Shown here: piece by piece, positions 9,571 to 63,370 of the stretch
Layout: each line of letters begins with the position of its first letter
Position numbering within the stretch: position 1 is the stretch's first letter
Assembly: GCA_964016885.1 (NCBI GenBank)
Contig: OZ024746.1
Span: 14,942,001 to 15,006,000, forward strand
Direction: 5' to 3'
From: Eledone cirrhosa
Lineage: Eukaryota
DNA length: 64,000 nt
Translations under genes and position numbers: made by a program
Notes under the pieces: generated by a model
Database searches by the model: none
What the model saw: only the letters and a program-made list of their open reading frames with translations
What the model was told of the DNA's origin: nothing

Positions 9571-11158
9571 AAGGTATCAGGTGCCTGGTTGTTTCAGTGC
9601 CTTAGCCTCACCATCACTTGTTGACCCTTGTGATGTGGTATGTGACCAATTGTTGCACTTGGTGGTGAATTGATGGTAGTTTTTGTTTGTGTTTCCCCCT
9701 ATTTTCTATTTCTCTCGCTCTAGTCATATTTTGGTGTGTTGTATTTGTGAGGTTCCTAGCAATAGTTAGTTGTATTTAGTATTTGTGTTTATATTTTCAT
9801 TTAAAAAGAATTATGAACAGTTTGTAATGTTATTTATATATATATTTAAAACAAATAAATTCCTCTTTTCAATTAATTTTTAAAATAAAAAAAGAAAGAG
9901 ATTTAATATTATAACTAAAATTCTCACTATCACATTGGTATTCAGGGTCAGTGAAGCATTTCTGAACTAGTGGGGTCAAATTTGGTCAATTTAGTTGTGA
10001 TTAGTTTAGCTGTTATTATCAACCAAGATATAAAAAACTTCAATATGTGATAAACATAACATGTACTTAAATTGTAGCGGATATACAAATAGATGTGTGT
10101 TTTGGTAGTTTAGGGAGAAATATGTTATTGGCGGGGTCACCTATTACAACACACAGGGACTCAGTGTACCTATTCTAAATCATATATACACAGGGATACA
10201 GTGTACCTATTGCCAAACAAAGGGTTGGGAGGACCCTTCAGCCATGTCAAGGACATGACAGCCTCCCTAGTATTTGGTGATGTTCAATAAATGCACCCAG
10301 TACATACTATAAAGTGGTTGGAAGGGCATACAGCCATAGAAAGCTTGCCAAACAAGGGGCTGGGAGGACCCTCTGTTGTGTCAAAAGTATGACAACCTCC
10401 CCTGTGCCCAACTGTACATAAGTGAGATGACAGATCCCTAGCTGCTCTGGGAGATTAGTGGCCACCACTTCAATACTGACTTGGTCTATGTAGATCTATC
10501 CAGCCTTTGCTAGCAGGGAAAGCAGATGTTAAAATGATGATGATGATGATGATGATGACGTGTATATATATATATATATATACACCCACACACACATATA
10601 TCAGTATGGCAGTAAACTAATACAATTAAATATAAGTATGTATACGTACATACATATATGTATACAGACGTACAGTAGTATGTATATATATATACATACA
10701 TGCACACATATATATATGTACGTATGGATTCACCGAACATTTATTATAATGCTCGGTGTGTTTGTAAACAAACATCCCGAATTAAGCCGTACAGTGTCTA
10801 GCAACCATCGTTGCTCATTTGTTCAACACTGACAAAGGAACGCTGTACTAGTTTCAAGCTTATTATAATAAATGTTCGGTGAATCCATACGTACATATAT
10901 ATATGTGTACATGTATGTATATATATATACATACTACTGTACGTCTGTATACATATATGTATGTACGTGTACATACTTATATTTAAGTAACAGCCGTACC
11001 AAGAGTGGGAAATGAAATTTTGTTTCATTTTTTCCGTTTATCATTTTCGCTACCCCGGGCAATTAACTCACTCGATATGCAAATTAGGCTGCTCAGCCGT
11101 TAATATGCATAAGGAAAGTATATACTTTCAGACGTTCAATCATCTGGCAGGAAGGTAT

Positions 11159-11201
11159 ACGTTGCTGACGATAGCTAATAAGGTTGAAACTAGTACAGCG
11201 T
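11159..11201 (+). ncRNA. Minimal type I hammerhead ribozyme motif
   Basis: ACGTTG-CTGACGA-tagctaataaggtt-GAAAC-ta-GTA-CAGCGT: 6-bp stem I, intact core, palindromic stem III (ACTAGT); stem II has one mismatch that is absent in the inverted copy. Confidence 0.8.
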
Positions 11202-11404
11202 TCCTTTGTCAGTGTTGAACAAAAGAGCAACGATGGTTGCTAGACACTGTACGGCTTAGTTCGGGATGTTTGTTTACAAACACACCGAGCATTATAATAA
11301 ATGTTCAGTGAATCCATACGTACATATATATATGTGTGCATGTATGTATATATATATATACATACTACTGTACGTCTGTATACATATATGTATGTACGTA
11401 TACA

Positions 11405-11630
11405 TAGCCCACACTGTAAAGTGGACGTGTAGGCGCCACGAAAAAGCACCCAGCACTCACTGTAAATGAGGTTGGTGTTAGGAAGGGCATCCAGCTGTAG
11501 AAATCAAGCCAAATCAGTTCCTGTATGAGCAAGGCATGGTCAGCCGACCAGACACTGCCCACACCAGAACAACCCGTCTAACCCATGCTAGCGTGGAAGA
11601 ACGGACGTAAAACGGTGATGATGATGATGA
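11405..11630 (+). mobile_element. RTE-tail SINE fragment nested in the PLE-like element
   Basis: gttaggaagggcatccagctgtagaaa...acccatgctagcgtggaagaacggacgtaaaacgg(tga)n; interrupts the 429-bp unit. Confidence 0.8.
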
Positions 11631-12349
11631 CATACTTATATTTAAGTAACAGCCGTACTAAGAGTGAGAAATGAAATTTCGTTTCATTTTTTCCGTTAAT
11701 ACAATTAAGTTATAAATATAATTAAGGATTTTTCATTGAGCAATGATCTTTCATTTAAAAAAAAGAGTTAAACCTGGTTCTATGATATGAAATTGGTTGT
11801 TTTAAATTGGTTTATATCTATTTAAAGACCTTCAATCATAATTTTATGTGAGAACTAAATCTCTCCAACTTTTTGTTAATTTTCAAAATTATTTGAATAC
11901 CATAATCAGTGTCATTCATTAGAAATATGGTAATGTTAATGAGATTGAAACAGAAACAAATACAAATATTTAAAACCCTTTTCATACCATCTTGGCTCTG
12001 GTCCTATGAAATAAAACCACTAATTTTAAAGAGTTCCTATTTAAATCTTCCAGCATAATTTTATATATGAACCACATGTTAAGTTGCTATCTTAGTAATT
12101 AAATGATTAACAATTTTGGAGAATCCCTCAAAAGTCTAGATTATTTGACAATGTGCTAATTATGCACCATTAATTAATATATGCTAGAAATAAGATATGT
12201 ATTCAGCAAAATAAACAATTTCAGCCATCATTTGCAATCAAGTGGTAGTATGTACTATGCTTTCTCTAAAGGTTTTAGATATCCATGCTGTCATGAGCAG
12301 ACACAGACATCTTTCTCACCCTCTTACCTCTTATCTAGCAGAACACCTA

Positions 12350-12700
12350 GGATGTGACAGTTTGAAGGAGAGAGAGCTGCACTAGCTGTGGGTTGGTACT
12401 TCCTTTATCTGCTAGCTGTGGCTTGGTACTCTCTTTATTGGTAAAAGTGGACTGGCAGCTTAAAGGAGAGAGAGCTGCACTAGCTGTGGGTTGGTACTTT
12501 ATCTGCAGAGTGGACTGAGAGCTTGGAGGAGAGAGGGCTGTACTAGCTGTGGGTTGGTACTTTATCTGCAAAGTGGACTGAGAGCTTGGAGGAGAGAGGG
12601 CTGTACTAGCTGTGGGTTGGTACTTTATCTGCAAAGTGGACCGACAACTTGAATGAGAGAGGGCTACACTAGTTGTGGGCTGGTACTTTCTTTATCTGTA
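12350..12700. repeat. About 60-bp tandem repeat, 5-6 copies
   Basis: Unit ...ggagagagggctgtactagctgtgggttggtactttatctgcaaagtggactgagagctt. Confidence 0.9.
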
Positions 12701-60983: not shown

Positions 60984-61590
60984 CGGGTCACTCTTGTGCT
61001 ACTGGTAACATGTAACCCAGTACAACCTGTCGCATGGTCGGGTCGTCGGCGACTAAACCGGCAACCCCACCAAGTTTACTTGGTGAGGAGGGTGATTTTG
61101 GACACCCTGCAGGACAAAAAAACAAAACCTGACTAAGGGCAAAAGAACTCAAGAGTCAACGACCATCCAAAAGTGTGTCAATATGTATATACACATGTAC
61201 ATATGTATGTATATGTATATGTTCATGTGTATGTATATGTGTGGGGACATAGAAATAGTCGTGCTGAGACACCCGATCGCGCGGTTCAACCACTGGGAGT
61301 GAAGGACCTCTAGCCTTTGTCAGGGCTTTCTTCTAGGAGAAGGCAACTCAGGAAACTGGGATAACTCCGATATAAAACCTGCGGCTCAGTAGTTACCGAT
61401 GACGTTGATCTTTTCTTCTTTTCAGGTTATAGCTACTGTTGCTCAGAGAGGGGGATTGGCTCAGTGGACAGTCTTTCCTCACTTTAAAAAATATCTTCAC
61501 GCACAGGCATTGCACGATAGAATTAATTAATAATTATTAATAATGGTATATTGTGCAATGGCCATACTCGATAACAAGGGGGCAGCCATT
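60984..61590 (+). mobile_element. Two non-coding retroelement-UTR-like fragments in (TATG)n context
   Basis: GC-richer islands 60984-61180 and 61244-61590; ctaggagaaggcaactc recalls RTE-type 5'UTRs; each is bounded by TATG-type repeats. Confidence 0.4.
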
Positions 61591-61601
61591 ATGTATGTAT
61601 G

Positions 61602-62808
61602 TCATCATCATCATTTTACGTCTGCTTTTTCCTGCTTGCGAGGGTAGGACGGGTTCTATTCAGAACAGCATCTCTCCACTTCTCACGGTCCTTTGTCATC
61701 TCCGTTAGCTTCAGCAATCTGAGGTCTGCTCTCACCACTTCCGCCCATGTTTTTCGTGGTCTTCCTCTACTGCGTCTTCCTTCTACTGGCATTTCTTGGC
61801 ACTTCTTTACCCAGCCGTCATCCTCCATGCGCATCACATGTCCATACCATCACAGTCTTCTCTCCCACACACTAGAACTTATCCCTCTTATACATAGTTT
61901 CTCTCTCAACACATCCATGCTTAGTCGTTCACGCACATTGACATTACACATCCAACGGAGCATGCTTGCTACATTTCTCTTCAGCCGTTGCATATCCTCT
62001 GCAGTTTCTGCCTATGTCTCACTACCATGCAGCATCGCGCATATTACACAGGCATCATATAACCGGCCATTCGTACGCAGGGAGAACCCCTTCTTTGTCA
62101 GCAGGAGAAGCAGCTCCCTAAACTTTTTCCAACCCGTCCTTATTCTAGATACTATGGCCTCGGAACACCCCCTCCCATGCTAATCTGATCACCTAGGTAC
62201 CGGAAGCTATCAACCACTTCTATAGAACTTAGCTGCATTTGAAAAATATGTCTATCAATGTGACTTCTACATAGTTTTCCCTACCTGTTAGTTTGCCTGC
62301 TATCCCACTACATCTCTTGTGTACACAAGATCTGCATTGTGTACATTTTATAGAATTTATGCCATTTTATAGAATTTATGCCAGCATATTGAACATGGCC
62401 ATTTCCCTGATGGAATCAGAGTTTTGTCCTCTTTTCTACTCATCAACACTTTTGTCTTAGCTAGGTTCACTCTCGGTCCTCTTAATTCCAACTGCTGTTT
62501 CCATAGCCAGAATTTCTCTAGGTCCTCTACTGATTCTGCTATAAGAACCGGATCGTCAGCATAGAGAAGTTCCCATGGATAGCCATGGACTCCTCTATTA
62601 TAGCTTGGAGGACTATAATGAACAAGAGCGGGCTGAGGACCGAACCCTGATGTACTCCTACTTGCATCTGGAATTCCTCACTAAACTCCATCCCTACCCT
62701 CACTTTACTGACAGCACCTCATTAAAAAGCTTGCACTGTCCTCACAAGCCATTCTTCAACACTTAGTTTCCACCAGATAACAGATCGAGGTACCCTATTA
62801 AAGGCCTA
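61602..62808 (-). mobile_element. Degenerate 5'-truncated RTE LINE
   Basis: WELLYADD, GKWPCS (PHD-like), FRYLG, WYGHVMRMEDDGWVKKC...GRPRKTW; (GAT)n tail; frameshifts. Confidence 0.88.
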
Positions 62809-62947
62809 TCAATTTTTTTCCATCGTCTTTTTCCTGTGCACTCCCCATTTTGAATATATCTATGTATATATATATATATATATATATATATATATATATA
62901 AATTCAAAATGGGGAGTGCACAGGAAAAAGACAATGGAAAAAAATTG
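62809..62947. repeat. Inverted repeat (about 45-bp arms) centred on (TA)n
   Basis: caatttttttccatcgtctttttcctgtgcactccccattttgaat-(TA)n-attcaaaatggggagtgcacaggaaaaagacaatggaaaaaaattg. Confidence 0.92.
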
Positions 62948-63172
62948 CAACAGAAAGACAAACAGATAATCTCCTCAGTCAACCTCTGGAAATCACTATG
63001 GTTTCAGTTCATTATGACCTTATGACCTTATTCTAGTCATTCCAGTGCACATTGGGACACTATATCACTATATATATATATATATATTTATCCTTATCTT
63101 TATCGAGCCCTCTTTAGATTTTAGTCTTCACATTTATTATTATTACTATATATATATATATATATATATATA

Positions 63173-63370
63173 GCGAAGGAAAAGTGGTAAGGAACCAGGT
63201 GGACCATAACGCACCAAAGTACTCAATACTTAGGGTAGTAGAGTGGGTAATAGGAGTAAGTAAGACCCCGACGGCTGAGCTCAAGCCGTTTCGACGGCTA
63301 ATTCTGTACAGTACAGAATTAGCCGTCGAAACGGCTTGAGCTCAGCCGTCTGGGTCTTACTTACTCCTAT
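63173..63370. mobile_element. PLE-like tail with fold-back (63250-63370) containing the 3' half of a hammerhead
   Basis: GAA-ACGGCT-tgagctc-AGCCGT-C-gggtc; related pieces at 29824-29937, 33621-33730 and 47558-47665; (TA)n on both sides. Confidence 0.65.

Follow-up and report, generated by a model that had tools for sequence, protein, structure and literature searches.

Judged from their sequences, the hammerhead motifs of families B–G in this DNA most likely belong to the terminal repeats (pLTRs) of Penelope-like retroelements (PLEs) of the Hydra type. Together with the copies of a seventh family, A, they were probably inserted at (TA)n by target-primed reverse transcription (RT) from both ends of a DNA break. 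The window, that is, the whole stretch of DNA that was analysed, comprised 64,000 nt of Eledone cirrhosa (GCA_964016885.1, OZ024746.1:14,942,001–15,006,000, forward strand), and the coordinates below are relative to it.

Hammerhead-derived sequence was present at every site listed in an earlier note on this DNA, but the complete folds were fewer than it had claimed. A type I descriptor identified five intact-looking motifs in the window, at 11159 (+; matched by the first descriptor version only), 32960 (−), 34630 (−), 47879 (−) and 63851 (+). The motif at 47879 also matched Rfam Hammerhead_1, but at 31.7 bits (E 6e-4) it fell short of the gathering score of 34; it was the only one of the five that Rfam detected. 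The motif at 63851–63924 (+), which has a closed stem III and relatives in L097/L151 (one place) and L212, belongs to an eighth hammerhead family, missed in the note. On its left side, family A had an inverted arm (10626–10865, −) that begins in hammerhead loop II and belongs to a retrozyme-like unit of 431 bp; its right arm (10862–11406, +) comprised 1.26 units of the 431-bp non-coding repeat. Its type I hammerhead (11159–11201, +) has a 6-bp stem I, a stem II of U.U plus 4 bp and the palindromic stem III ACUAGU; no (TA)n directly flanked family A in the window. Family D comprised a long arm with an intact hammerhead (32960–33025) and a tail (32830–33093, −) and a short arm (33096–33283, +), whose core was mutated to CUAAAGA and whose 5' reach exceeded that of the long arm by 12 nt. 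In family C, a short-end arm (34585–34943, −) carried an intact hammerhead with a long stem II insert (34630–34726), and an inverted long-end arm (34944–35098, +) belonged to the same insertion. The note had listed this hammerhead together with the one at 39160 (+). They do not form a single inverted duplication but stem from two independent insertions that are 88% alike, and each insertion has an inverted arm of its own. The second (39029–39301) consisted of an inverted tail arm followed by a + arm with an intact core (39167) and a poor stem II.

A fold-back of family B (30097–30233) had a long − arm and a short + arm with its core at 30180; the 5' strand of stem I of this motif (30175, +) was lost to the fold-back junction. 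Both arms of another B fold-back (39330–39525) ended in or below the core. Family E was a single arm (47727–47968, −) between two (TA)n runs, with its hammerhead at 47879–47916. Family F was represented by a fold-back (58599–58912), in which a hammerhead-like fold with a closed stem III (58750–58800, +) reads CAGAAGA in place of CUGANGA, and by a tail fragment (63071–63148, +). The family G motifs at 29824, 47580 and 63328 were 3' halves, cut off in loop II and without CUGA. They lay in a head-to-head G2 insertion (29824–29939) with a short − arm, the hammerhead 3' half, whose 5' end fell at an initiator-like point, and a tail-only long + arm; in a G1 copy (47556–47706) with a 17-nt inverted short arm followed by a long arm, the hammerhead 3' half, starting in loop II; and in a G2 fold-back (63172–63368) with a long − arm and a short + arm, neither with CUGA. 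A G2 tail fragment was located at 33617–33727 (−). The statement that the families share no obvious sequence outside the core was not quite right: G1 and G2 were 74% identical, B and G had a 12-nt tail word in common, and TYGAGY was present in the tails of the reference sequences of all seven families.

In the genomic copies, families A, B, C, D, E and G and the 63851 family contained CUGANGA, GAAA and UH in C-G-S order. The descriptor scan of the window found no permuted (SGC) or other non-CGS block order, and the sampled loci gave 5 scattered non-CGS matches vs 215 CGS matches. The hammerhead reading of the note held against dinucleotide-shuffled sequence: the two descriptor versions gave 3 and 4 matches in the window, compared with means of 0.01 and 0.02 in block-wise shuffles (100 per version). 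Stem covariation was also found. In a set of 12 A-like genomic copies, chosen by the hammerhead descriptor, 10 of the 14 pairs were changed on both sides, and 94% of cells were paired vs 20–44% when the alignment was slid; compensatory stem changes also occurred among D-like variants. It is extremely improbable that the motifs are chance matches in AT-rich sequence or that the assembly is chimeric at (TA)n. Folding z-scores of single motifs were unremarkable (−1.9 to +0.9 in 9 of 10), and the lone sub-threshold Rfam match would also suit chance. Against this stand the covariation, 63 descriptor matches overall vs 0–1 in shuffles, no match of the reversed-pattern controls, and the presence of family D in thousands of contigs of public runs. 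A PDB sequence search gave no match, and Rfam miRNA matches in the window were (TA)n and fold-back artefacts. Core columns were less variable than flanking columns in five of five families, an observation on which we do not rely because of CpG decay and subfamily structure.

Family F departed from the canonical CUGANGA core in its genomic copies. CAGAAGA was present in 67 of 84 copies, and in 96 among the 100 matches listed, while the stems and the spacing otherwise fitted a hammerhead. With about 20,000 CAGAAGA-bearing genomic copies, F may be one successful family that uses a natural U4A core. The short or palindromic stem III of dimer-type hammerheads, proposed in the note, was seen in A, C, D and E but not in B, F, G and the 63851 family, which have a closed stem III of 4–7 bp and are therefore predicted not to need a dimer. 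AATAAA, which had been seen after several motifs, was enriched without being general: 9 of 31 hammerhead clusters had it within 30 nt past the cleavage site, compared with 2 of 31 upstream and a background of 2.8%. The adjacency to (TA)n proved general, at 429 of 548 3' ends across genomic copies vs 12–19% of random positions.

The search for protein partners succeeded. Elsewhere in the genome, six of the seven families (B–G) adjoin Hydra-type Penelope ORF sequence: B in L350/L363/L369, C in L336/L337, E in L143/L342 (plus inverted arms in L126/L146), F in L158/L341 and G in L338/L339. Family D forms a 3,856-bp unit (pLTR-ORF-pLTR-(TA)n) with an intact 750-aa ORF (P0001). The family is young, with copies 99% identical, and by eye the unit is colinear with Hydra-1_Obim. 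No empty site at D was found in the contigs of four public runs, and no RNA holder was listed for the D element. The D ORF contains the motifs RWR, DKT, CxCX5C and CxxC..E..N..CxY/H, and RWR and DKT also occur in the family F ORF of L158. The endonuclease regions of D, F, E and C align, with a CxCX5C linker, CxxC and CxH around E and N, and no CCHH; P0001 reads CRY where other D copies read CRH. A Pfam search found no domain in P0001. GIY-YIG (PF01541) matched pieces of family E below the cut-off (E 4e-4 and 7e-4); the motif spacing fits by eye. In D and F, the region of endonuclease type lies at the C-terminus, not at the N-terminus as in the Naiad clade. The hammerhead sits in the pLTR, directly upstream of the next ORF; a pLTR hammerhead and insertion at (TA)n are both features of the Hydra clade. 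From the motifs, the ORF links and the comparison by eye, the elements probably belong to this clade. Two candidates were rejected: a pattern search found long B copies with an ORF just downstream, so B is not a stand-alone mini-element, and a Neptune-like GIY-YIG piece beside C in L007 was a separate element on the other strand.

Family A had dimers of 426–432 bp in four loci, a longest open frame of 69 codons and, in 29 loci, never more than one unit of shared sequence upstream. Such tandem non-coding units of a few hundred bp, each with a type I hammerhead, characterize non-LTR retrozymes. On another reading, each of the seven families would be a non-coding retrozyme in its own right, spreading as circular RNA; A and a 310-bp array of 11 hammerheads (L236) might speak for this. 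We regard this as very unlikely, since each of B–G adjoins a Hydra-type ORF in at least one locus and the sequence upstream of B–G is a long 3' UTR, not a tail repeat. The 431-bp repeat of A likely borrows the enzyme of the B–G elements.

The load in the genome was large. Evenly spaced DNA totalling 600 kb held 52 motifs, or roughly one every 11 kb, which extrapolates to ~2.6e5 genome-wide; three exact patterns alone gave 101,795 genomic matches. The same 600 kb contained at least 17 hammerhead clusters, and we estimate ~1e5–3e5 motifs in all. The window is not a hot spot, with 4 descriptor matches vs 5.5 per 64 kb in evenly spaced DNA (one array dropped; 6.7 with the array), and it had fewer (TA)n runs (46 vs 117). 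The large and diverse PLE/retrozyme system preferring (TA)n that the note had proposed is thus real and larger than could be seen from the window, but it is not of an uncatalogued kind, because the literature already describes PLEs of the Hydra clade that carry canonical hammerheads and target (TA)n, among them octopus Hydra-1_Obim (PMC8557442).

Every family had two fixed 3' ends, ~70–100 nt apart, lying 18–55 nt and more below the predicted cleavage site. Among 111 head-to-head pairs, 91 were long plus short, 2 long plus long, none short plus short and 18 unclassed; thus, 91 of 93 classifiable fold-backs had one end of each kind. G2, which was never searched for, gave 26 long-plus-short pairs out of 30. 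In the mechanism that we consider probable, a GIY-YIG domain would make cuts in both strands of (TA)n, and RT would be primed from each DNA end at one of two internal sites on an RNA left uncut at this hammerhead. On mRNA from the pLTR's own promoter, RT would run off at the start after 60–250 nt, producing tiny fold-backs with fixed 5' ends, and read-through RNA from tandem copies would give long copies. Permuted A units would come from a template RNA that is circular or multimeric. Joining of the two cDNAs would then rely on short stretches of homology or on filler bases. The ribozyme itself probably acts in source elements, by processing their multimeric transcripts, whereas the majority of the scattered copies are passengers.

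The head-to-head arms could also arise by self-priming, in which one cDNA, or an antisense-template copy, would bend back and serve as its own template, a route put forward for rotifer Penelopes on the basis of palindromes at their junctions (PMC3846280). Many junctions had short overlaps (negative gaps), and among 82 adjacent pairs the 5' ends were equal in 28 and the tailed arm was longer in 14, all of which self-priming could produce. In the other 40, which include the D and C insertions of the window, the tail-less arm reached further 5'. Each arm of these 40 pairs thus has sequence that the other lacks, so neither was copied from its partner, an argument for two separate starts on RNA. 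A sense cDNA that folds back cannot yield such pairs; this test does not touch the antisense version. Overall, self-priming seems unlikely, and we prefer two RT starts, one per DNA end.

Short copies of B, G, C and a sister family, H, stopped at a fixed, initiator-like 5' point. In a fresh B1 sample of 40 consecutive loci, fetched after the edge had been predicted, 14 of 23 copies ended 23–26 nt above G12 (within 4 nt), 1 at 31 nt and 8 beyond 72 nt, with no ends between 32 and 72 nt. The B1 edge lies at CCAGATT, 30 nt below TATAAATA. In H, the end fell within 4 nt of TTTC|ATATG for 5 of 6 arms taken without selection and for 11 of 28 picked by hand. For G2, 61 of 65 copies ended within 35 nt, and for C 24 of 37 ended at 100–107 nt; the C and G1 sets came from searches starting near the edge, the B pattern left out copies shorter than 22 nt, and the +1 positions, except in the B1 test, were picked after the data had been seen. 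Pile-up at the predicted +1 was lacking in D (3 of 31) and E (0 of 36), and F had several 5' edges. An extra G, as would come from cap copying, was no more than a weak hint. Defined 5' ends read from search coordinates for C and G were discarded as a query-copy artefact, since the elements continue upstream, and so was a BLAST-based 5'-end histogram, confounded by subfamily divergence and (TA)n.

The short copies with such edges are probably run-off cDNAs that end at the mRNA start. More tentatively, most tiny insertions might be complete run-off cDNAs, reverse transcribed to the cap from two sites near the front of a pLTR-promoted mRNA, one per DNA end. Less probable, and in our view doubtful, is that short copies are ordinary 5' truncations unrelated to a promoter, which would form where RT stalls on a stable RNA fold within or close to the hammerhead, or where the transcript is processed, for example at a 3' splice site. 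The absence of an edge in D and E and the position of the B and G edges at or inside the ribozyme agree with truncation, but the edge in H is 69 nt away from the core, on its upstream side, and lacks AG, the B1 edge falls at TATA+30, and the empty 32–72-nt gap is hard to reconcile with gradual stalling. As for splicing, the B1 edge (a pyrimidine run, then CAG|) and the G edges (CAG|, TAG|) resemble 3' splice sites, and a D. virilis intron ends at helix I (PMC4209133); against this, short B1 and G2 copies have no upstream exon in common, and several retain the AG. If run-off is correct, promoter-proximal hammerhead cassettes would be mass-produced, about a quarter million of them, and it would depend on the start position whether the mRNA contains the complete ribozyme, as in B, or none, as in G, where the start would fall within loop II.

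These findings bear on how PLEs make head-to-head, one-tailed insertions and on what their hammerheads do. Thousands of copies per family allow base-level predictions of the two RT starts, the transcription start and the cleavage site, and the intact ORF of the young family D, in L152, is a ready substrate for in vitro study. Rfam misses most of this motif load, which may have consequences for the annotation of repeats and for intronic RNA in E. cirrhosa.

The element class is already known. The Hydra clade has been described as C-terminal EN+ PLEs with type I pLTR hammerheads and (TA)n targeting, including Hydra-1_Obim; its diagnostics are RWK and DKT, a CxCX5C linker, CxxC and CxH around E and N, and no CCHH (PMC8557442). 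The elements here resemble it in their RWK-like, DKT, CxCX5C and CxxC/CxH motifs, putative C-terminal GIY-YIG-type domain, pLTR type I hammerhead, (TA)n targeting, partial tandems, inverted 5' copies and one-end tail. However, that paper lists a single family from octopus and, beyond the cnidarians, 'a small number', compared with the at least 17 clusters found here; the tail is 70–100 nt here and 30–40 nt there; the D unit (3,856 bp) exceeds 'generally <3 kb', a tendency and not a criterion; the hammerhead listed for Hydra-1_Obim matches none here; and the relevant passages of the published description make no mention of a fixed 5' edge (PMC8557442). Poseidon_Ac of Anolis uses two internal RT starts and an uncleaved template in vitro (PMC11167929). 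It shares with our elements a tail-defining pair of internal starts, an AT-rich target cut on both strands and the uncleaved template, but it belongs to another clade and its starts are adjacent and inside the ORF, whereas the sites here lie in the 5' UTR, 70–100 nt apart, with one start per arm in the genome (PMC11167929). Minimal PLE hammerheads likewise occur in numerous divergent families within one genome, usually as single, truncated motifs, with opposite-strand pairs 100–700 bp apart and palindromic stem III; unlike them, several families here have a closed stem III, 30–60-nt stem II inserts or U.U at 10.1–11.1, and family F has A at position 4 (PMC4209133). Non-LTR retrozymes resemble family A in its 431-bp non-coding unit, its one type I hammerhead per unit and its tandem dimers, but A has mostly 1–2 units with Penelope-type inverted arms (PMC7229834; bioRxiv 10.64898/2026.07.22.740005). 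Reported counts reach 4,000–9,000 minimal PLE hammerheads per genome (PMC4209133) and, for retrozymes, up to 120,000 copies in axolotl (PMC7229834; bioRxiv 10.64898/2026.07.22.740005); the motif density here is above the counts given in these sources.

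Hammerhead-derived sequence was present at every site where the earlier note had placed it, but copies other than 11159(+), 32960(−), 34630(−) and 47879(−) were damaged or partial. In the 64-kb window, which spans 14942001–15006000 of its contig, the first version of a type I descriptor matched 11159(+), 32960(−) and 34630(−), and the second version matched 32960(−), 34630(−), 47879(−) and a new site, 63851(+). Dinucleotide shuffling, a control proposed in the earlier note, left a mean of 0.01 matches in 100 shuffles versus three in the window (first version), and a mean of 0.02 (maximum 1) versus four (second version). 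The new site, at 63851–63924(+), is an eighth hammerhead family with closed stem III; relatives were found at L097/L151, which are one place (89%), and at L212 (78%), other loci of the same genome. The sole hammerhead report by Rfam in the window was 47875–47919(−), with a score under gathering. Single-motif folding z-scores were unremarkable, so the evidence consists of the descriptor matches, the number of copies and the covariation. Stem covariation, also proposed as a test, was observed among 12 short hammerheads resembling family A: both sides had changed in 10 of 14 pairs, and 94% of cells paired compared with 20–44% for slid partners, in rows that were descriptor-selected, a choice biased towards pairing. 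Among D-like copies, the palindrome of stem III was TATATA, TATGTA or TGCGCA, and stem II was variable yet still paired.

Families A, C, D and E have a short palindromic stem III, the dimer type; in families B, G and that of 63851, stem III is closed by 4–7 bp. The complete G motif contains a ~40-nt insert in stem II, and CUGANGA was located ≤95 nt upstream in just 4 of 104 distinct G-type copies. The family F core was CAGAAGA in 67 of 84 copies and in 96 of 100 among the matches listed, two of the four CUGA cases being fold-back junctions. A literature search on the hammerhead U4A catalytic core found no relevant report; other natural core variants are listed in PMC3088659, whose figure may include the F-type core. 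Family F is either a tolerated core variant or the dead ribozyme of a successful family. In families A, B, F and G, U.U replaces the usual 10.1–11.1 pair, and a pyrimidine–pyrimidine opening was seen in 72 of 257 descriptor matches.

The hammerhead-bearing elements of families B–G are very probably Penelope-like elements (PLEs) of the Hydra type. A probable coding partner of the kind that the earlier note had suggested seeking was found at L152, where family D forms pLTR-ORF-3'UTR-pLTR-(TA)n (pLTR, the terminal repeat bearing the hammerhead) with a period of 3,856 bp and a frame of 750 aa. Its motifs, RWR, DKT, CxCX5C and CxxC..E..N..CxY/H, are Hydra clade features according to PMC8557442 (section 11), and the ORF appeared by eye to be colinear with Hydra-1_Obim in the supplement of that paper. 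The 36 database relatives of this ORF (31–38% identity) are every one unnamed or hypothetical, and family D copies are 99% identical to one another. At L158 and L341, family F separates two consecutive Hydra-type ORFs, lying after one ends and before the other begins; such an ORF ends upstream of the motif in families E, C and G and begins ~170 nt below it in family B. The endonuclease motifs of D, F, E and C align together. A tblastn search of the window for Penelope-type coding remnants found none (best E 0.6). Asn/Ser-rich inserts lie between the RT and endonuclease regions at L342:2383–3672 and in the L152 ORF, as in rotifer Penelopes (PMC3846280). In family A, the sequence common to 29 loci never extends >1 unit upstream, dimers are spaced 426–432 bp and the longest frame is 69 codons, which fits a non-LTR retrozyme. 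Eleven head-to-tail 310-bp units at L236:245–3387, each with an identical hammerhead, form a retrozyme-like array. Pieces with a CCHH-like GIY-YIG domain at L007:186–728(−), L174, L042 and L049:2136–2567 belong to a second PLE type, which is Neptune-like. The kind of element is real and already known; the families are new and the load is unusual.

Copies in four groups have fixed 5' edges. Long copies of B1, a subfamily of B, carry CCAAT, then TATAAATA and, 30 nt on, CCAGATT over the opening bases of stem I; it is at CCAGATT that short copies break off (10 of 10 unselected copies ≤26 nt from G12, a reference position of the core). Of 33 B1 copies matched by a pattern, 19 ended ≤31 nt from G12, none at 32–63 nt, and 14 were long. 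When the position was fixed in advance, 14 of 23 B1 copies from 40 consecutive loci, matched by a pattern blind to copies <22 nt, ended at 23–26 nt, one at 31 nt and eight beyond 72 nt. Sister family H stops at TTTC|ATATG: of the unselected arms, 5 of 6 ended ≤4 nt from this point, and of those picked by hand, 11 of 28, with one in the next 36 nt. The two G subfamilies end around TTAGTC/TCAGTC: G2 ≤35 nt in 61 of 65 copies, and G1, in a set including sister subfamilies, ≤20 nt in 39 of 44. Initiator consensus sequences are YYANWYY and TCAKTY. Family C ended at 100–107 nt in 24 of 37 copies, although these had been collected with a query starting at 104. Against fixed edges, family F has several, and only 3 of 31 (D) and 0 of 36 (E) copies lie near the predicted start.

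Short copies would be produced when reverse transcriptase runs off at the mRNA start, and long copies and family A may derive from read-through or circular templates. pLTR promoters are known (PMC3846280; PMC2377424, section 14). De novo Chlamys insertions, with a median length of 128 bp, were interpreted as truncation in PMC9977147. In the passages searched, mainly of open-access papers, short copies were not described as ending at the transcription start. We give run-off at the start site an even chance of explaining the short copies; this reading is testable.

Each of the seven families showed two sharp 3' peaks, ~70–100 nt apart in the six measured. The (TA)n preference suggested earlier held: 429 of 548 3' ends were ≤14 nt from (TA)3, compared with 12–19% of random positions. 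After removal of duplicate and self loci, 111 head-to-head pairs of inverted arms from six families comprised 91 with one arm at the farther (long) and one at the nearer (short) 3' end, 2 long+long, 0 short+short and 18 with an unclassed end. In most pairs one arm was search-selected and its partner unselected; G2 was never a search target. Self-priming in its sense-strand form, discussed in PMC3846280, is an alternative source of such arms. Among 82 adjacent pairs, the arms were equal in 28 and the long arm reached further 5' in 14, but the short-end arm reached >5 nt further 5' in 40; in these 40 pairs, fold-back copying cannot have made either arm from its partner, which disfavours the sense-strand form of self-priming. 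We consider two-ended priming probable: the (TA)n target would be cut on both strands, two priming events would occur on RNA uncut at the hammerhead in question, and the two cDNAs might be joined by short homology. Two 3' ends, one per arm, agree with Poseidon_Ac, for which RT was shown to start at two internal sites and both strands of the target to be cut (PMC11167929), and one tail end per pair matches the one-sided tail described in PMC8557442. A TYGAGY word is common to the tails of B, C, D, E, F, G1 and G2, 20–45 nt below the short 3' end (for example at window 39370–39385, 47625–47640 and 63220–63235), and GTATTGAGTACT occurs in the tails of both B and G.

At window 47533–47985 and 63071–63560, different families are stacked, at each place within a single (TA)n tract, and tRNA-like SINEs come next (48243, 63413). 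A SINE-like repeat lies inside the long end of F at 58912–59113, its A/T-rich end repeated on both sides. A short inverted repeat around (TA)n at 62807–62949, without a hammerhead, is the source of the top miRNA-like Rfam scores. Homogeneous minisatellites occupy 20216–22826 (36 bp), 50670–52677 (72 bp), 49542–50043 (45 bp) and 59506–60156 (38 bp), and RTE-like LINE fragments were recognized by eye at 19700 and 61700–62650.

Sixty evenly spaced 10-kb stretches of the 3.0-Gb genome yielded 63 descriptor matches, compared with 0–1 in each of 10 shuffles; Hydra-like coding pieces were present in 7 of the 60. Leaving out 11 matches from one 310-bp tandem array, the remaining 52 gave 0.87 per 10 kb (bootstrap 0.52–1.25), which extrapolates to ~2.6 × 10^5 (1.5–3.7 × 10^5) motifs genome-wide. 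Because this sample was similarly dense, the window is average for this genome. Exact patterns for the D-like group, family B and family F had 66,234, 15,802 and 19,759 whole-genome matches, respectively, and each reversed control had 0. The pooled loci gave 257 descriptor matches in 31 clusters, 17 of them represented in the random sample; these figures and the genome-wide estimate bear out the large, diverse system that had been proposed. In the 2026 annotation of O. vulgaris (PMC13282606), 31 Penelope-like families are listed as recently active and 893 SINE families as unclassified; ribozymes are not mentioned in PMC8967140. Among published counts, coelacanth has 4,000 minimal motifs and Xenopus 9,000 (PMC4209133), and as many as 120,000 retrozymes are given for axolotl (PMC7229834); the load found here can be compared with these only roughly, since our descriptor is looser than the published ones.
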